Positions 19,339-27,662 of a DNA stretch of 64,000 nucleotides are shown here, piece after piece. Origin of the DNA: a virus. Its lineage: Duplodnaviria > Caudoviricetes. Under the pieces are notes generated by a model. It was not told the DNA's origin. It did not search any database and was given only the letters and a program-made list of their open reading frames with translations. The DNA lies in the IMG/VR virus record IMGVR_UViG_2875882051_000001, positions 1-64,000 of that record; one strand, 5' to 3'. Numbering within the stretch: position 1 is the stretch's first letter; every line of letters starts with the position of its first letter. A program made the position numbers and the translations under genes.

Positions 19339-19623
19339 CTACCCCTTTATGTTTTCTTTTATAAATGTAATTAAATCATCCTTATTTAAATTGCTATATC
19401 CCTCTAGGTTCTTTTCCTTACATATAGCCTTAAGTTGATCTACAGTCATACTGCTATAGTCAACTTCCCCATCATTATTTTCCCCCTGTCCGTTATCTTC
19501 TAAGCTTGGATCAGCTATTAATCCATTCTGTATTTGTTCATCTATACAATTTGACTCATGTATATTGAATATTTCAGGGTTATGAATTTCATAGCCACAA
19601 TGTTTACACTTCAATATGATCAC
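19339..19623 (-). CDS. Rho-N/HeH-domain small protein
   Basis: DYSSMTVDQLKAICKEKNLEGYSNLNKDDLI. Confidence 0.75.
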   Translation of the reverse strand: MIILKCKHCGYEIHNPEIFNIHESNCIDEQIQNGLIADPSLEDNGQGENNDGEVDYSSMTVDQLKAICKEKNLEGYSNLNKDDLITFIKENIKG

Positions 19624-19645: not shown

Positions 19646-20755
19646 CTAGCCAAGTACTCTTGAAGCTAGTTCAGGATAGATACTCTTAACACCATAAAGC
19701 ATATCAACAGAAATGATATTCTTTTTAGTGTCCATGTTATATCCCATTGTTACTCTTAAGCTTAAACCATTAGGTGCAGTAGCAACATAGCTATCAGCTC
19801 CACCCATTGGTGGTTCCATTGGTCTTGTAGCTAAACATAATGCATTCTTATGGAATGCTAATGATGCAACGTGTGATTTAGCAAATGTTACTGCTTGAGC
19901 TGTAAATGTATCTTTAACCGCTGGATATACATTTACAGTTAATACACCTGATACAGCATTTGGAGTATCTGAAGTAGCAACAAATTGTTGTCCATTTACT
20001 GTAAATATATCACCTTTCTTTAATTGAGCAGTAGAACTTCCTGCAGCACTTGTTAATGTTACAGTTAATTGTCCAGCTGTTCCAGCACCTTTAACATCAG
20101 TTAATGCACTATAAGCACCTGCTACATGAGTTTTAATGTTTTGGTCCATATAATTATCAAATCCCATAATTCTACCCATTGAAGCTTCTCTTAACGCGGC
20201 ATTAGTTCCCGATGCATCTACTCTAGCTATTGCATCAATTGTAACCAAATTTGCTTGAGCATAAGGATCCCATACAGCACATCTATTTTGAGTAGGTACT
20301 CTATTCTTATTTAATACTAGCATTGCATTAGATATATCTTTAAGTGCACTTGGAGTTGTTCCACCTATACCACTGTAATATGGAATATCTGCATATAAAC
20401 CGCATAAATCTTGGTCAACCTTTTCTGCTATAGCTAAAGTTGCACCATCTAAAATTTGAGTTCCGAAGTTTTCAATATTAAGTGATAATTCTTTTGAAGA
20501 TACTTCAACTGATACGTCAGCAATCTTGTCTAATTTAACAAGAACATTTGATTCACCAACATCTTGAAGATTAATAGTACCTCCAAACTCATCAGCTATA
20601 AATGTTGCTGGTTTTCTTACCTGAATAGTATCTCCTTGTTGCTTAAATTCGCTAGAATAGTCTGTATGAACTAATCCTGCCATTACAAAATTAGATTGAA
20701 GTCTTAATAATGCTTCCCTCGCTATTTGTTGAGATGTTAAAAAAGTATTTGCCAT
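19646..20755 (-). CDS. Major capsid protein (P22 coat family)
   Basis: MANTFLT..IAREAL..L...GDTIQVRKPATF...DMLYGVK. Confidence 0.9.
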   Translation of the reverse strand: MANTFLTSQQIAREALLRLQSNFVMAGLVHTDYSSEFKQQGDTIQVRKPATFIADEFGGTINLQDVGESNVLVKLDKIADVSVEVSSKELSLNIENFGTQILDGATLAIAEKVDQDLCGLYADIPYYSGIGGTTPSALKDISNAMLVLNKNRVPTQNRCAVWDPYAQANLVTIDAIARVDASGTNAALREASMGRIMGFDNYMDQNIKTHVAGAYSALTDVKGAGTAGQLTVTLTSAAGSSTAQLKKGDIFTVNGQQFVATSDTPNAVSGVLTVNVYPAVKDTFTAQAVTFAKSHVASLAFHKNALCLATRPMEPPMGGADSYVATAPNGLSLRVTMGYNMDTKKNIISVDMLYGVKSIYPELASRVLG

Positions 20756-20780
20756 AATTAAATTCACTCCTTAATTTTTA

Positions 20781-21383
20781 TTATTTTTCTTGATGTGCTG
20801 CAAACCACTCAGCATCACTCATTTTCGATTCGTCTACTATTTCTGGGCTTTCATTTGGTGGCTTGTACCCAGATTTTAATTTTTCTTCTATTGCTTGAGT
20901 TAAACTTTGATTGTAAACCTGATTGAATGTCTCAAAGTTTTTAACTGTTGATTCCTCATCCTCACCTAAGAAATAATCTACAAGGTTTAATGGTATTTTC
21001 TTTTCATTTGCTATTTGTATAGCTCTGTTCTTAAGATCTTTTCTTGCACTTTCAGCTTTCATATTATCAAGCTCTTTCTTTAAGTTTTCCAATGCTAGTT
21101 CTTTTTCATCTTTCTTTGGATATCTTTTTAAAATTTCATCATCAATAACCTTTTGCAAGTTATTTTTCTGCCAGTTTTTTATTCCATCTGTAACTCTTGT
21201 ATCTCCATAAGATTGTAAATATTTCTTGCCATCTTCACTACTATCCAAAAAGTTTTTAACATCATCTATAGTTAAACCCTTCTCAAATAATTTAGCTAAT
21301 GCACCATTTCCTTTTACAACATCATCTATATCTGCATCCTCTGCTAGGTCCTTTAATAATTCATTTATTTCATTCTTTTTCAT
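20781..21383 (-). CDS. Capsid scaffolding protein (DUF4355)
   Basis: SYGDTRVTDGIKNW...LKSGYKPP; precedes capsid. Confidence 0.8.
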   Translation of the reverse strand: MKKNEINELLKDLAEDADIDDVVKGNGALAKLFEKGLTIDDVKNFLDSSEDGKKYLQSYGDTRVTDGIKNWQKNNLQKVIDDEILKRYPKKDEKELALENLKKELDNMKAESARKDLKNRAIQIANEKKIPLNLVDYFLGEDEESTVKNFETFNQVYNQSLTQAIEEKLKSGYKPPNESPEIVDESKMSDAEWFAAHQEK

Positions 21384-21501
21384 TGTTAAACTCCTTCCCT
21401 ATCCAGTTTTATTACTAACCCTGTATAGTTAACTCATTATTTATTTCTAGCCTTTTCACACCATGCTGAGGGCAAAATAAAAAGCCTTAAACTCTTAAGA
21501 C

Positions 21502-21966
21502 TTATTTAATACCTTTGTATGCTGTTTGCAATAAGAACCCCAAGTGATTCCATACTTGATTTTTAATTCTTTCCTTACATATCTCAGCTCCTATTTCCTC
21601 ATTATAATTTTTAGGATCAACACATGCTGAACTTTCAACAATTGTAAATCCATTTACTAATGTTGCAACAACAATAGTGATTTTATCTTTCTTAGTAAAC
21701 ACTTCATAATCAACAATAAAGCTATCAACCATTTGTGCCCCTACTGAAACACCGCTAGGTAAGTTGGGATTATCATCAACCTTCAAATATGACTTTTCAA
21801 ATACATCCTTAGGCGACCATGAAATATAATCATCTGAATACTTAATCATATATCCTTCTGTTTGGGGATTTTCATTTTCTGGAATCGTCCAACCTTTGAA
21901 TCTATTATAATCTCCTAAATTCATTTCCTTAGCTTCTATTAATTTTGTTCCAATATACTTATTCAT
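21502..21966 (-). CDS. Two-domain protein: YIGTK..SWSPKDVFE domain + Gp49/Sf6-gp66-like domain; candidate nucleotide-signal sponge
   Basis: C-half LVNGFTIVESSACVDPKNYNEEIGAEIC..RIKNQVWNHLGFLLQ resembles Phage_gp49_66; adjacent to Tad1. Confidence 0.7.
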   Translation of the reverse strand: MNKYIGTKLIEAKEMNLGDYNRFKGWTIPENENPQTEGYMIKYSDDYISWSPKDVFEKSYLKVDDNPNLPSGVSVGAQMVDSFIVDYEVFTKKDKITIVVATLVNGFTIVESSACVDPKNYNEEIGAEICKERIKNQVWNHLGFLLQTAYKGIK

Positions 21967-22340
21967 TATTTTTCATTCCTCCCCAATACATTTCTTTCAA
22001 TTCTATCTTCAACTCTTCTATTCATCCACATAAGAGCTTCTTCAATATGAGTTAAGGCACATGCATTCTCTCTTGATGAAAACGGTCCTGCTTGAAATGC
22101 TTTTAATCTATCTCTTACTATTTCCAACAGATCAGTGTCAATTACACCATGTATTGAATCTTTTTCTTTCCTAGAGCCTTTTTGTAATTGAATGACTACT
22201 ACATCATTAGCAACATCTTTTTCGTTACCATTATTAATAACTATATGGTATTCATGATGCGCACCTCCTGGGCCTATTTCATCAGCTGCAAAAACTTGAT
22301 TTAACTTTTCTCTCTTTTGGATTGTACTTAATTCTTTCAT
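21966..22340 (-). CDS. tad1: Thoeris anti-defence Tad1-family sponge (124 aa from its own RBS)
   Basis: [14 protein letters not shown]...[50 protein letters not shown] matches recalled C. botulinum prophage Tad1; GGAGG RBS. Confidence 0.82.
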
Positions 22341-22541
22341 ATTCTTGATCCCTCCTATACTATTTTCTTTTTTTATTTCCACTGTTCCTTCTAAGTCTAC
22401 TTTCGTATCAATCTTCATTGTGACTTCTGCAATACCTTGCTTTTCTGGTTTATAATGTACATTCATATCAAGAATTGTATCTACTCTTTTACCATTAAGC
22501 TCGACACAACCTTGATTAACTTTAATGTAAGGGAATTCCAT
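22341..22541 (-). CDS. Small hypothetical ORF read in frame into Tad1
   Basis: Own RBS (AGGAGG) and ATG at 22541; no stop before the Tad1 ATG. Confidence 0.55.
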
Positions 22542-22613: not shown

Positions 22614-22730
22614 CTAAATTTTAATTTTTCTCTTTAAAAAGCAAAAACACAATCCAAATAAATTAATTTGAAACCATGCTTCAGCATACCAAGTCCCATT
22701 CTCTGCATATTTTGTAATGTAATGATGCAT
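22614..22730 (-). CDS. Small phage protein MHHYITKYAENGTWYAEAWFQINLFGLCFCFLKRKIKI (38 aa)
   Basis: Translated by hand; abuts upstream stop; RBS AAGGAAG. Confidence 0.6.
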   Translation of the reverse strand: MHHYITKYAENGTWYAEAWFQINLFGLCFCFLKRKIKI

Positions 22731-22892
22731 TTATTTCACTTCCTTATTATCCAAAATCACTTTATATCCATCATGCTCAATTAGTTCCTTATCACTTATT
22801 ACCGCAATCACTTCATCATCCTTGGTTATAATAATTTTTTTGAATTCATTTTCTCCAATTTTCATAATATATTCCTCATTGATTTTAGGCAT
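22731..22892 (-). CDS. Small hypothetical protein (53 aa)
   Basis: Translated by hand: MPKINEEYIMKIGENEFKKIIITKDDEVIAVISD... Confidence 0.5.
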   Translation of the reverse strand: MPKINEEYIMKIGENEFKKIIITKDDEVIAVISDKELIEHDGYKVILDNKEVK

Positions 22893-22929
22893 AATAAAAG
22901 CACCTACCTATTAACTTAAGTAAGTGCTT

Positions 22930-23100
22930 TTAGCCTTCTTTTAATTTCTTTCTCTTTTCTAGGTGTTTTAAATATTTCTCAAAGCTTTTTTTAGCTTCTT
23001 CCGGTGCTTTATCAGTTAATACAAATTGATGTGTTTCTTCATCAATATCCCACCATTCATTATTCTCTTTCCATATAAACAAATCACCTGGTGCTCTCAT
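22930..23100 (-). CDS. Putative immunity protein for the MuF extension (56 aa)
   Basis: MRAPGDLFIWKENNEWWDIDEETHQFVLTDKAPEEAKKSFEKYLK...; RBS AAAGGAG directly after MuF stop. Confidence 0.6.
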   Translation of the reverse strand: MRAPGDLFIWKENNEWWDIDEETHQFVLTDKAPEEAKKSFEKYLKHLEKRKKLKEG

Positions 23101-23113
23101 ATGAATCACTCCT

Positions 23114-24502
23114 TTATTTTAGTTTATCAAGTTTTTCCATAAATTTCAATGAAAATTCTCTTGGTTTTCTTGAATCATAGAATTCTGCAAATACTTCAGA
23201 TAAAATTTCAGAACCATCAGAAAAATCACTTGAATATCTTGACAATTTGCTTTCTAATAATTCAAATAATTCCTTATTATCTTTAATTCCTAGAATATCT
23301 TTTCCAATGGAAATCGTATTAATGTTATAAGTATCGTGTACCACATGACCCATTTCATGTTTTACAATAGCTCTATATGACGTATTTGGTGTGAACCATC
23401 CATCCTCAGATAATTTTGAATACTCATTTTCCAATAACTCTTTATTCCTAAATGCTTTTCCGTTTATATCAAGGATATGACCTCTAGCTTGTGCAAAATC
23501 TTCATCTTCCATATAATAATTAGGTCTTAGTGTAAGCTTATTACTTCCGTTGGATATCTTAGGATATTTACTAACGATCTCAGACATATCATCAATAGCT
23601 TGTTTAACAAGATCAATGTCTCCATCGAAGTTTTTGAACTCTGATAATGCTATTCCTTTATCCTTTGCATAATTCTTCAAATCTTTTAATTCTTCTTTTG
23701 ATATTTTAGCTCCCTTGGCTGGCCATATTGTGCTATTGGTAACTCCACTCATATTATCTTTCTTTTCATCATTAGCAATAGTGTTAAATCCCCTGCATAA
23801 TGGATGTACAACTCCAGGAGCTTTATCTAAATCGAATGGTTTTCCATCTAATGCAGCACATCTAGTACAAGTTTTAGCATCAAGTACCTCATTACGAATG
23901 ACCTTTTTAACTCCAGTTTCCTTACAGAACTTTCTAAATGCTTCATCTTCGCATCTATTTACTTCTGTTTCAACCAGTCTTCTAACTTCATAAGCATTAT
24001 TATCGTAAGTATCATGAATTAACTTCTTAATTTGATTCACATTAACCTTACCTTTTAAAAAATCTTGAGTTTGGCTGTGAAGTAACTCTGCTACAGCCTG
24101 TTCATTATCCCAAACTCTACTAGAAAAGTGTTTCCCCTTATAATTGTTATCAATAATCTCTTTAACATCTTTATGATTAGCATTATAACTATAAAATTTA
24201 TAAGTGTTACTAACTGTATTATTCAGAATATCCGTTGTTGTCTTATTTGTAATAGTACCTTGGACTTTTGCATATCCAGTGATCAAATTTAGAAACTTAC
24301 TACTTAGTTTATCCTGTTCATCCTTGCTAAGATTCATCACCGTGTCAGCTACTGTATAAGTAAGCATTACATTTGCTATTTCTTTTAATAAGTTATCTCT
24401 ATTTTGTTGCTGCTCCTTATAAACTTCCTTTAGTTGATCATTTGCATTATCATAAAGACCTTCAATGAAATTAGCTTCATCATCTTTACTATAGTGATCC
24501 AT
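23114..24502 (-). CDS. MuF (SPP1 gp7-like) minor head protein with C-terminal HEXXH domain
   Basis: FSSRVW...RRLVETEVNR...TCTRCAALDG...HPLCR then about 200-aa extension with VKHEMGH. Confidence 0.85.
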   Translation of the reverse strand: MDHYSKDDEANFIEGLYDNANDQLKEVYKEQQQNRDNLLKEIANVMLTYTVADTVMNLSKDEQDKLSSKFLNLITGYAKVQGTITNKTTTDILNNTVSNTYKFYSYNANHKDVKEIIDNNYKGKHFSSRVWDNEQAVAELLHSQTQDFLKGKVNVNQIKKLIHDTYDNNAYEVRRLVETEVNRCEDEAFRKFCKETGVKKVIRNEVLDAKTCTRCAALDGKPFDLDKAPGVVHPLCRGFNTIANDEKKDNMSGVTNSTIWPAKGAKISKEELKDLKNYAKDKGIALSEFKNFDGDIDLVKQAIDDMSEIVSKYPKISNGSNKLTLRPNYYMEDEDFAQARGHILDINGKAFRNKELLENEYSKLSEDGWFTPNTSYRAIVKHEMGHVVHDTYNINTISIGKDILGIKDNKELFELLESKLSRYSSDFSDGSEILSEVFAEFYDSRKPREFSLKFMEKLDKLK

Positions 24503-24503
24503 A

Positions 24504-25772
24504 CTATTCACCTGCAGCTTCATCTAAATTAATTTTTGTCTTATTTAATTCAGATTCTTTCTTTATCTTTTCGATTTCATTTTGAGGATTTTCTATAAAT
24601 GATAATTGAGCTAAACCAGTTTCAGTAGATAGCTTGTCTCCAAGTTTTTGAATTATATCAGCAGTGCTGGTATCATCTTGCGGAATATTAGGTGTAAACT
24701 TAATTTTAATATCTCTATAATCATAAGTTTTGTTTTGGGTTAGATTTAAGTATATAAAGAGAAATTTTAATCTACTTTTAATGCAATCAGCTAAAGCTCT
24801 TTGATTTAATTTGCACTTTTCTTCTAAAGAAATCAATCTAGATCTTAAAGCAACTCCCGAAAGATTACTTTGCATTTTCTCATTATGATTTATATGCGAC
24901 GTCAGCTGGTACATCTTATCTTCTTGAGTAGAAAGAGTATTTTGAATAAAACTATCATTTATATTCTTTATTAACCATTCAGCTCTTCCTTTATCCGAAG
25001 GGACCTGTATAATTCCTTTCTCCTTCATTTCATCTACATCTTCATCCTCTATCTGAAATCCAAAAAGACTTAAATATGCATTCCTAAAATCACTTATTTC
25101 ATTGCTTATATCTGAAAGGTTAGTCTCATACGCATCTTGCAACCCTTTAATATCTTTATAGATTGTGTCATCTTCTTTTTCAATACTGACCTGTGCTATT
25201 GATACAGGCACTTTACCGAATCCATGAGATTCACCTTCATCATCAGTAAAGCCATTTTTATAGTGATACACCGAAGAATCATCATAAACGTCAATATAAA
25301 CATTTGAATCGAATCTTTTATGATATATGCGCATAAAAAAAAGTATGTTCCCGAAATCATCTACGTGAGCATACCCTTCTCTTGGAGTTATTATTTTAGA
25401 GCTAAATTGTGCTTCATCATCAGTATAGTATAATTCATATGCAAATCCATAAGTAAGCATTCTTTTCATAAGATCACTATCATGTTGTTCACTCCAGTGT
25501 TCTAAATAGTAATCTATATCATTGACTATATCTGCATTTCCTGATTTAGAAATATAGGTTACATCATTTCCAACTGAATAACTTACTTCTTCCTTAATGA
25601 ATTTTTTTAGGAAATTTACAGGAGTTTTATTATTACTTCTTTCAGTGACCATTTTATAATTTTTCATTGCATCCGAATCACCTTTATAATAACTATACAT
25701 ATTATCATAAAGTGGTTTTTTAGCTTTATAGTAGCTATAAACTTTTTCAAGTAATTGTATATCTATATCCAA
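24504..25772 (-). CDS. Portal protein (SPP1 type)
   Basis: FIKEEVSYSVGNDVTY...DAYETNLSDISNEISDFRNAYL...KFTPNIP. Confidence 0.92.
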   Translation of the reverse strand: MDIDIQLLEKVYSYYKAKKPLYDNMYSYYKGDSDAMKNYKMVTERSNNKTPVNFLKKFIKEEVSYSVGNDVTYISKSGNADIVNDIDYYLEHWSEQHDSDLMKRMLTYGFAYELYYTDDEAQFSSKIITPREGYAHVDDFGNILFFMRIYHKRFDSNVYIDVYDDSSVYHYKNGFTDDEGESHGFGKVPVSIAQVSIEKEDDTIYKDIKGLQDAYETNLSDISNEISDFRNAYLSLFGFQIEDEDVDEMKEKGIIQVPSDKGRAEWLIKNINDSFIQNTLSTQEDKMYQLTSHINHNEKMQSNLSGVALRSRLISLEEKCKLNQRALADCIKSRLKFLFIYLNLTQNKTYDYRDIKIKFTPNIPQDDTSTADIIQKLGDKLSTETGLAQLSFIENPQNEIEKIKKESELNKTKINLDEAAGE

Positions 25773-25788: not shown

Positions 25789-27615
25789 TTAGATTCCTAG
25801 CTTTCTTCTACTTATAAATGTTGCTATTGGAATAACTTTTATTTCTTTCAAAGCATTTTCGCCCTCTGAAATCATATCTATAAAATCATCATGCGTAGTG
25901 TATTTTTGCCCTTGGAATTCAAGTACCTGTTTTACTGCTGCAGAGCTATCTTCACAATCAGAATTTATAATTATCTGTCCATTATTTATTGGATCCATAA
26001 CAGTGCTTATCTTTTCATCCTTGTTTGTTTTCTGCATTTTATTAATAAATTCAAGGCGTCTACTCTTTAATTTAGGTTCTTTATCGATCAATTCTTGTAT
26101 TTTAAGAACATCAGCACCCATGAATGTATTTTTCTCAATAACAACATGAGTAATATCTTCATGTCTTCTAATAAAATCAATGACCTTTTCGCAATAGTCA
26201 TTATATCCAAGTCTTTTCATTAGCAAATCCCGAACATAAGTAAAGTCATTTGTCGCTTTACTCATTACACCCATAGCGGTATAGTCATTTTTCTTACTTG
26301 TGCTTGCTGCTGGATCTATAACTAAAACTGTTTTGATAAATTTGTGGTTTTCTATCTCCTCACTAGTTCTAGTAGCAACAGATTTAAACCACTTTTCGCC
26401 TATAGCTGTAGCATCGTTCATGAGCTCAGACATAAATGCAGCTCTATTTTCCCAATACTTTACCGCTAAATCATTAAAGCAATTCCATTTCTCAGGCCAC
26501 CAGGTTTCAAATTGCATTTCCTTTTTATGGTCATCGTAGAATTGCTTTGCTTTCTCTTTTCTTTCATCTTTATTTAATTTTTCATCAAAATAAATATCGT
26601 GGCATTGCAACCATAAACCGGGTTTGTATTCATCTCCAATGGTTTCTCCATATTCAAAAATATCTTCAATAGTTTGCCCATCTTGAAGTATTATTGCACG
26701 TCTTAAGATGGTATAATAATCTCCATTTCGGCTTAATCTACTCATAAGACAATCAATATGCAATACTGTTCCAATAGCAATTATTTTAGTAGCCGCTTTA
26801 ATCTTCTTACCATTTCTATATACTGCTTTATCTCCAACTTCTTCAACTTCCTTAGTCCATTTATTATACTGCTTTTCCCTAGCAGCATCAGTTAAAATGT
26901 TCTTTTCATCCTGGAAGTCATCACCAATAAATACAGTCGGTCTAATTCCTCCCCAGTTCGCACCTCTTACAGATGTTCCTGAACCAACAGTCCTGATGTA
27001 AGTTCCATTAGTGAACTCAACCTCGTTTGCATTAACTGTATATCTTTCTCCATTTGACTTTAAGGATTTAATATCAATTAATTTACCAAAGCATTTAATG
27101 ATTTTTTGGTTTTCATTAAACACTTTCTTAATGGAATCAAGGAACTGTGTTGCGTCAGTATCAGTTTTTGCACCTAATAAAGTAAATAATGATTTTTTAT
27201 AACAGTGCAGATATACGCTAACAGCTTCATCGAATATAGTTGTCTTTGCATATCCTCTAGGCTCAATTATTGCAGCCTTATCTCTTTTATCCTCTACAAA
27301 TATTTCATTTGCAATATCCCATAATTCATAGTGACCTTTAGATAATGTTCTAGCTGCATTAGGCTTATGATCTAAAGGAACGCTTTCATCGTCATTTAAC
27401 CCTTTAGGTACAAATATATCGCTCATAAAGTACAGGCAGAAAAACTCAATATCTTTTTCACCTAATGCTTTAGCAAGTTTATTCAAATCCCTACTATTCG
27501 CTCTAAGTAGCTTATCTGAAATCTCTTTGTCATAATGTTTGCCGAGGTACTTATTTAACAGATATACCTCATATTTAAGCTCTGTATCAAATTTTAAGTT
27601 GTCAAAGTATATCAT
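25789..27615 (-). CDS. terL: Terminase large subunit
   Basis: IIEPRGYAKTT Walker A, FIGDDFQDE Walker B, IDPAAS nuclease, HDDFID. Confidence 0.9.
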   Translation of the reverse strand: MIYFDNLKFDTELKYEVYLLNKYLGKHYDKEISDKLLRANSRDLNKLAKALGEKDIEFFCLYFMSDIFVPKGLNDDESVPLDHKPNAARTLSKGHYELWDIANEIFVEDKRDKAAIIEPRGYAKTTIFDEAVSVYLHCYKKSLFTLLGAKTDTDATQFLDSIKKVFNENQKIIKCFGKLIDIKSLKSNGERYTVNANEVEFTNGTYIRTVGSGTSVRGANWGGIRPTVFIGDDFQDEKNILTDAAREKQYNKWTKEVEEVGDKAVYRNGKKIKAATKIIAIGTVLHIDCLMSRLSRNGDYYTILRRAIILQDGQTIEDIFEYGETIGDEYKPGLWLQCHDIYFDEKLNKDERKEKAKQFYDDHKKEMQFETWWPEKWNCFNDLAVKYWENRAAFMSELMNDATAIGEKWFKSVATRTSEEIENHKFIKTVLVIDPAASTSKKNDYTAMGVMSKATNDFTYVRDLLMKRLGYNDYCEKVIDFIRRHEDITHVVIEKNTFMGADVLKIQELIDKEPKLKSRRLEFINKMQKTNKDEKISTVMDPINNGQIIINSDCEDSSAAVKQVLEFQGQKYTTHDDFIDMISEGENALKEIKVIPIATFISRRKLGI

Positions 27616-27662
27616 GTTATTCCTCCTTTTGGGCATAATAAAAGAACCCTATTTCTAGAGTT

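Follow-up and report, generated by a model that had tools for sequence, protein, structure and literature searches.

The product of a small gene in the head module of a Clostridium-type prophage combines an Acb4-type sponge domain with a 64-residue N-terminal module (the N-domain). To judge from sequence homology, phages have joined this module to at least five unrelated sponge folds: Tad2, Acb4, Sequestin, Tad1-like and RyR-Tad. The module is small and unstudied; the Acb4-family C-domain and the Tad1 gene to which the gene is coupled are of known kind. By analogy with a characterised homologue, the N-domain is perhaps best seen as a generic dimerising or assembly accessory of sponges, a reading that we favour over an independent sponge and to which we give a probability of about 0.45. 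The gene lies within the stretch of 64,000 nucleotides that was analysed (the window), which is part of an 85-kb provirus record.

The motifs listed in an earlier, sequence-only reading of this DNA were found in the translation of the 154-residue open reading frame (Table 1). The gene is real and conserved, since it has 562 homologues, mostly of 154 residues and named 'Gp49 family protein'; phrog_9467 matches the protein from end to end (E 2e-66). Its N-domain aside, it is an ordinary member of the Acb4 family. An identity as an NADH pyrophosphatase was rejected, the matches (PDB, E about 0.9; NCBIfam, E 0.013 against a 158-bit cut-off) being of the kind expected by chance. The start of the gene had been described as overlapping the Tad1 stop, and the two codons, ATG (21966-21964) and TAA (21968-21966), do have base 21966 in common. 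The same TAATG overlap recurs in a 248-kb viral contig (L010), in Clostridium phage CP51 and between gp48 and gp49 of phage N4. The GGAGG near the end of the Tad1 coding sequence may work as the ribosome-binding site for the second gene. Beyond the cassette stop, the 118-nt spacer to the scaffold gene (21384-21501) is AT-rich; on the minus strand a run of T comes after a weak CTTAA/TTAAG hairpin there, which the terminator scan did not call.

Table 1. Positions in the window of the Tad1 and N-domain-Acb4 genes, their parts and the surrounding head genes
Feature	Position	Strand	Basis or setting
Terminase	25789-27636		head module
SPP1-type portal	24504-25772		head module
Minor head protein	23114-24523		head module
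Three small ORFs (38, 53 and 59 aa) between minor head protein and Tad1	22614-23109	-	orphans
5' extension of 67 codons in frame with Tad1; separate AGGAGG (9-nt spacer) and ATG	22341..22541	-	sequence
Tad1 gene, counted from M68 (124 aa) and including the stop codon	21966..22340	-	phmmer, PF24729
GGAGG, Shine-Dalgarno-like, within the Tad1 coding sequence, 11 nt upstream of the ATG	21978..21982	-	sequence
TAATG stop/start overlap of Tad1 and the 154-aa gene	21964..21968	-	sequence
154-aa gene (N-domain, linker, Acb4-type domain, stop codon)	21502..21966	-	ORF list
N-domain, residues 1-64, conserved sponge-associated module	21775..21966	-
Linker, residues 65-76, conserved in clostridial relatives	21739..21774	-	alignment
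Acb4-type (PF13876) domain, residues 77-154, alpha-beta-beta-beta-alpha, dsRBD-like	21505..21738	-
Scaffold	20781-21383		head module
P22-type coat protein	19646-20767		head module

The upstream gene is called as an ORF of 191 residues, of which residues 67-191 match the Clostridium botulinum Tad1 structures 7UAV and 8KBE (phmmer E about 2e-51); the ORF also matches PF24729 (E 3e-8). It is thus a member of the Tad1 family by full-length homology to a structurally and functionally defined Tad1. Two candidate starts, M1 (22541) and M68 (22340), each have AGGAGG at 9 nt, the motif ahead of the M68 ATG reading AGGAGGG, and M68 is the most likely start. The Tad1 relative in L010 does not have the extension and shares the sequence MKELSTIQ, with which the solved CbTad1 chains begin, so that the conserved unit is the 124-residue protein. 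The 67-residue extension had no homologue of near its length in 80 related loci or in a set of 5.8 billion proteins, and gave only a weak match to phrog_12216 (E 0.002); it is either an orphan N-terminal domain on Tad1 or an untranslated open stretch. The window Tad1 is a close homologue of CbTad1, which it matches end to end over 124 residues, and both are borne on prophages of clostridia. It differs from CbTad1 in the possible orphan extension and in its coupling to an Acb4-type gene.

The cassette sits in the head module of the provirus. The three small ORFs that separate it from the minor head protein gene have no Pfam match, the one of 38 residues matching phrog_10400, a family of unknown function, and they may be further anti-defence morons at the same insertion spot. 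Between the coat gene and the head-tail genes, a protein of 94 residues (19339-19623, minus strand) carries a C-terminal Rho_N/SAP-like motif (Pfam E 6e-9).

The pair of genes is found elsewhere. In L010 (3588-4971), Tad1 and the N-domain-Acb4 gene lie between nrdD and nrdG with an identical one-base overlap, and their presence together in an unrelated viral contig implies that the pair moves as a unit. Start/stop overlaps flank the 154-residue gene on both sides in that contig. CP51 has a homologous 154-residue gene in the matching position of its head module, with a 68-residue Tad2-like gene coupled in front of it, whilst in N4 the Acb4 gene gp48 is followed by the start/stop-coupled gp49, which encodes an N-domain and Tad2. 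A further, separate sponge ORF lies within 1.5 kb in nine of the best 80 IMG/VR loci. The proposal that the pair forms a multi-signal cassette is supported to this extent, that Tad1 and the 154-residue gene make up a conserved two-gene anti-signalling cassette, which recurs in L010. In a related phage (locus L004), a MuF-type minor head protein (1505-2746) with Pfam hits to ADP-ribosyltransferase toxin families (PF03496 and, faintly, PF01129) is encoded just upstream of an equivalent cassette, whose N-domain-Acb4 gene has a frameshift.

It is plausible that the cassette is expressed from a structural operon, given that late structural proteins set off several signalling systems; three RNA runs from the same species gave no reads on the provirus and are thus neutral on this point. 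The position in the head module also suggested a signal for packaging into the virion, an idea that was rejected as the main one because the cassette occurs in non-structural regions too and sponges are expected to act stoichiometrically.

The C-domain had been described as Gp49-like and its family as overlapping the Acb4 cGAMP sponges. Residues 75-149 match PF13876 with 91.3 bits against a cut-off of 27 bits (E 5.8e-26), and PF13876 is indeed the Acb4 family (bioRxiv 10.1101/2024.12.30.630793). The full-length AlphaFold2 model (pLDDT 95.4) places in this part of the chain a helix (77-83), three strands (84-92, 96-103 and 108-114) and a long helix (123-151). Structural similarity to Acb4, put forward earlier as a check, is clear: the Acb4 protein of phage SPO1 (PDB 9E4W) is the top Foldseek match (probability 1.0, TM 0.64-0.69) and also the top VIA-align match (Z 7.7, rmsd 2.4 Å over 73 residues), 2.3 Z units above the next. 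The VIA-align matches that follow are dsRBD proteins with Z of at most 5.4, as expected for the Acb4 fold.

Identity to SPO1 Acb4 is only about 19%, and the window protein adds the 64-residue N-domain and a structured linker. An ungapped phmmer alignment, read against the published SPO1 Acb4 contacts (K81 lies outside it), shows five nucleobase-pocket residues kept or conservatively replaced, K36, F48, F62, N63 and I66 corresponding to K95, F107, Y121, N122 and I125; an Acb4-like pocket architecture thus seems plausible from the alignment. The contacts E49, V56, Y57 and T70 are changed (to T108, C115, V116 and I129), and the ligand specificity is uncertain because of the replacements of E49, Y57 and T70. 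The C-domain is closer to N4 gp48 (45% identity over 51 residues), a tested Acb4 that bound c-di-AMP at 111 nM (bioRxiv 10.64898/2026.08.10.743972). Chang et al. found binding of 3'3'-cGAMP by all eight of the Acb4 homologues that they tested and remarked that some homologues have 'additional extensions' (bioRxiv 10.1101/2024.12.30.630793). Homology thus gives good support to the reading of the C-domain as an Acb4 sponge that takes up the cyclic dinucleotides of CBASS and is expressed along with Tad1.

The N-domain is matched by no Pfam or NCBIfam model, even at permissive thresholds. A full HMMER scan of 1.84 billion cluster representatives gave 2213 relatives with E no higher than 1e-3, and 466 when the limit is 1e-10. 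Across phages of Bacillota, Pseudomonadota and Bacteroidota the identity is 45-75%. Y20, G38 and W50 are invariant, and 90% or more of the sequences retain G6, K8, A12, G18, N21, W26, P29, E32, P34, Y39, Y43, S49, P52 and F56. A GW..P..E.P motif on a conserved loop is nearly invariant across the phyla. The linker stays with the N-domain when the partner changes and is also present in Tad1-fused relatives, and the mean pairwise identity is 60% for the N-domain, 66% for the linker and 63% for the sponge domain. Among 63 close two-domain relatives, about eight (some 13%) have lost the conserved loop and kept the core.

The N-domain is modelled with high confidence (pLDDT 95.3) as mainly beta, with a strand (11-14), a helix (17-24), a hairpin (38-52) and a second helix (53-59). 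This model had no fold match in the PDB by Foldseek (best E 1.4), and the best hit of a wide VIA-align search, a Tudor-like domain of the Mfd/CarD type at Z 3.5, is at the level of noise. Foldseek against BFVD returned viral homologues only, amongst them a Yersinia phage protein with an RyR domain, and the ESM Atlas, with the known partner families excluded, gave one match at 0.86 and no lead. Comparison of the N-domain profile with those of Tad2, Acb4, Sequestin and Tad1 by hhalign gave a probability below 1% in each case. A relationship to Tad2, for which a PF11195 search had been suggested, was not borne out: PF11195 gave no match at E up to 10, hhalign gave 0.3%, and SPO1 Tad2 was retrieved by Foldseek at E 3.1 with a TM of 0.39. 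Nor is the N-domain a Sequestin (PF21825), to which it had no Pfam match and an hhalign probability of 0.7%, its model being mainly beta and the Sequestin fold helical. Tad3, a dimer that binds ThsB and works by means of its N-terminal helices, was likewise rejected as an identity.

Partners of the N-domain were surveyed in the best 149 of the 2213 representatives and in the best 80 IMG/VR loci. The frequent fusion to Tad2/DUF2829 that the sequence-only reading had mentioned is evident in both sets. By Pfam, the partners in the 149 representatives are Tad2-like in 39, PF13876 in 27 and PF21825 (Sequestin) in 22, with one Acb2/Tad1-hairpin and one OmpA-family domain, the last in P0250. In 77 of the 80 loci a sponge lies in the open frame of the N-domain (Tad2 in 47, Acb4 in 18 and Sequestin in 12), the other three showing nothing recognisable. 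Custom HMMs gave a similar picture with about eight Tad1-type fusions, a number to be read with caution, because sequence of the shared clostridial linker may have entered the Tad1 profile; the presence of this linker in the Tad1-fused relatives led to cross-labelling between families. Longer chains also occur (Acb4-N-domain-Sequestin, N-domain-Acb4-Tad2 and N-domain-Tad2-Tad2). Of the apparently stand-alone N-domains, that of L004 is due to the frameshift and that of L005 is an ORF followed at once by a separate Acb4 ORF, whilst at least one, in L006, looks truly free-standing.

The closest relatives of the window's N-domain are fused to other sponges, Tad1 (79% identity) and Tad2 (78%), and the nearest other cluster representative fused to Acb4 is only 63% identical. 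On a poorly resolved tree of N-domains the partner label changes 32 times, against 42.6 +/- 2.2 for shuffled labels and a minimum of 4. The neighbours and the label changes together indicate that the N-domain and linker form a constant front end, behind which the sponge is exchangeable.

Other phages illustrate this exchange. N4 gp49, annotated as a DUF2829 protein, resembles the window protein in its N-terminal N-domain and in its start/stop coupling to a preceding sponge gene, but has Tad2 in place of Acb4, and the gene ahead of it encodes Acb4 (gp48) rather than Tad1. CrAssphage gp41, whose annotation is that of a PF13876-family protein, likewise has the N-domain at its N-terminus, where it gives a tblastn match. 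The genomic neighbourhoods of both differ from that of the window. A homologue in phage Huey is annotated 'anti-CRISPR protein', a label that probably stems from the partner domain if this is DUF2829, AcrIIA7 being DUF2829-like. In the sponge-sponge fusions of phage Pm86 (Acb4-Tad2) and phage Ab09 (Acb4-Sequestin, gp59), small oligomeric anti-signalling domains are likewise combined in one polypeptide, but both halves of those fusions are proven sponges, whereas the N-domain has no known ligand. Sequestin, to which the N-domain is unrelated, was found by Tal et al. through Pfam families fused to Tad2 or Acb4 (bioRxiv 10.1101/2025.07.12.664507); since that search was based on Pfam and the N-domain has no Pfam model, the N-domain was invisible to it.

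The sole direct mention of the N-domain that was found in the literature is made in passing and regards gp68 of Pectobacterium phage vB_PatP_CB1, which is called 'RyR Tad' (bioRxiv 10.64898/2026.06.04.730250). Residues 1-70 of gp68 are homologous to the N-domain (BLASTP E 5e-9, 33% identity; hhalign 97.6%, E 4.8e-12), which makes RyR-Tad the fifth sponge fold found with it. The order of domains, N-domain first and sponge second, is the same in both proteins, but the C-domain of gp68 is an RyR Repeat12-like gcADPR sponge instead of Acb4, and its N-domain does not have W26 of the loop motif. Both the crystal and solution data show the N-domain of gp68 as a domain-swapped dimer, beta1 of one protomer being lodged in the other in the crystal; on their own, residues 1-86 were inactive against Thoeris I, and this type of domain is described as 'often a single ORF' (bioRxiv 10.64898/2026.06.04.730250).

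We propose that the two-domain anti-defence protein and Tad1 would be made from one late transcript of the prophage. The C-domain would, by homology, form a tetramer that sequesters CBASS cyclic dinucleotides of the 3'3'-cGAMP kind in pockets between protomers, and Tad1 would take up gcADPR and some cyclic oligonucleotides, so that the cassette could blunt both Thoeris and CBASS. The N-domain would most likely be a domain-swapped dimer like that in the RyR-Tad crystal structure, and would act outside the pocket of any particular sponge as a generic accessory that assembles or stabilises sponge oligomers. This role is suggested by the facts that the N-domain is almost always fused, that it is indifferent to its partner, that the tested homologue is an inactive domain-swapped dimer and that the loop is lost in some 13% of close relatives. 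Other observations count against it. All five partner families self-oligomerise and have no evident need of an added dimerising domain. The N-domain equals the sponge domain in its degree of conservation and its loop is nearly invariant, which is more like a binding site than a scaffold. Finally, some N-domains are free-standing, as in L006 and in the published description of gp68-type domains.

The sequence-only reading suggested that the N-domain may be an uncharacterised sponge in its own right. It would then be a small homodimer that binds a signal not covered by its partner, such as His-ADPR, N7-cADPR, cyclic mononucleotides or cyclic tri- to hexa-adenylates; every fusion would be of dual specificity, and the Tad1 cassette would span three signal classes. 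Sequestin was discovered by just such guilt by association, known sponges fuse with each other in the same way, and the recognised partners of the N-domain are, but for the one OmpA fusion, all sponges (Tad2, Acb4, Sequestin, Tad1/Acb2-hairpin and RyR-Tad). The domain is small and, by homology, probably homo-oligomeric; it is conserved to the same degree as the sponge domain, is independent of its partner, and may stand first, last or mid-chain in multi-sponge proteins and sometimes alone. Its nearly invariant loop contains many aromatic, acidic and basic side chains (Y20, W26, P29, E32, P34, K8). However, the domain resembles no sponge in sequence or fold, is free-standing in only three of the best 80 loci, unlike Sequestin, Tad2 and Acb4, and has a conserved surface that is near-neutral or acidic by sequence where a basic pocket would be looked for; the loss of the loop in some close relatives points the same way. 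The N-domain of gp68 was inactive against Thoeris I, although it is a divergent homologue that lacks W26, and for full-length gp68 sub-micromolar binding is named only for ADPR-derived signals, the full panel not being in the text. Similarity to known sponges thus gives the original claim no support; a sponge function for the N-domain seems less likely than an accessory one, yet is a serious rival to it.

A second activity of another kind would be the binding of a conserved protein of the host or of a defence system, for example a sensor or effector, a guard like Panoptes/PanDA, a chaperone or a protease, either as a non-sponge function or to protect or localise the sponge. Conservation across three phyla at 45-75% identity is unusually high, the conserved loop is exposed, the constant front with its variable cargo is reminiscent of polymorphic effector systems, and direct protein inhibitors of Thoeris exist (Tad3-8). 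No candidate target is known, though, and the fold matches to Tudor-like domains of the CarD/Mfd type do not rise above noise (Z 3.5 or below). N4 has an N-domain in gp49, yet PanDA restricts N4 through its Acb4 (bioRxiv 10.64898/2026.08.10.743972), which speaks against guard evasion, at least in trans. We regard protein binding as unlikely.

That the 154-residue protein is not anti-defence at all, its dsRBD-like C-domain binding RNA, or the protein serving in head assembly, and the adjacency of Tad1 being incidental, is very improbable. In favour of this are the location of the gene among head genes, with the minor head protein on one side and the scaffold on the other, and the resemblance of the Acb4 fold to dsRBDs. 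However, the pair also occurs between nrdD and nrdG in L010, and near replication or lysis genes in N4 and P22-like phages, which shows that it has no fixed link to head assembly. The genes beside it and the domains fused to it are sponges, and every one of the eight Acb4 homologues tested bound cGAMP.

A generic accessory to sponge oligomers is the reading that we favour for the N-domain, and its distribution gives it a wider interest. Several N-domain fusions (P0229/P0274, P0255/P0273, P0205, P0217, P0230, P0239, P0282, P0294, P0296 and P0303) have partner regions of 59-172 residues that match none of Acb4, Tad2, Sequestin, Tad1 and RyR-Tad, and in the six that were scanned against Pfam (P0205, P0239, P0255, P0294, P0296 and P0303) no family was found. 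These regions are candidates for new anti-defence domains.

Sponges are one of the chief means of phage escape from CBASS and Thoeris, and the fusion partners of sponges have already yielded one new family, Sequestin. The N-domain spans five sponge folds and the phages of three bacterial phyla, including N4 (gp49) and crAssphage (gp41), and its role would be either that of a new signal-binding family or that of a general requirement of sponges for assembly, stability or localisation. We put forward only tentatively that it makes up a sixth family of immune-signal binders, so far overlooked, or else an obligatory co-factor common to all sponges. If this is true, the N-domain would serve as a hook with which to search for sponges, and its unmatched fusion partners, which form a ready candidate list, would be new anti-defence domains.
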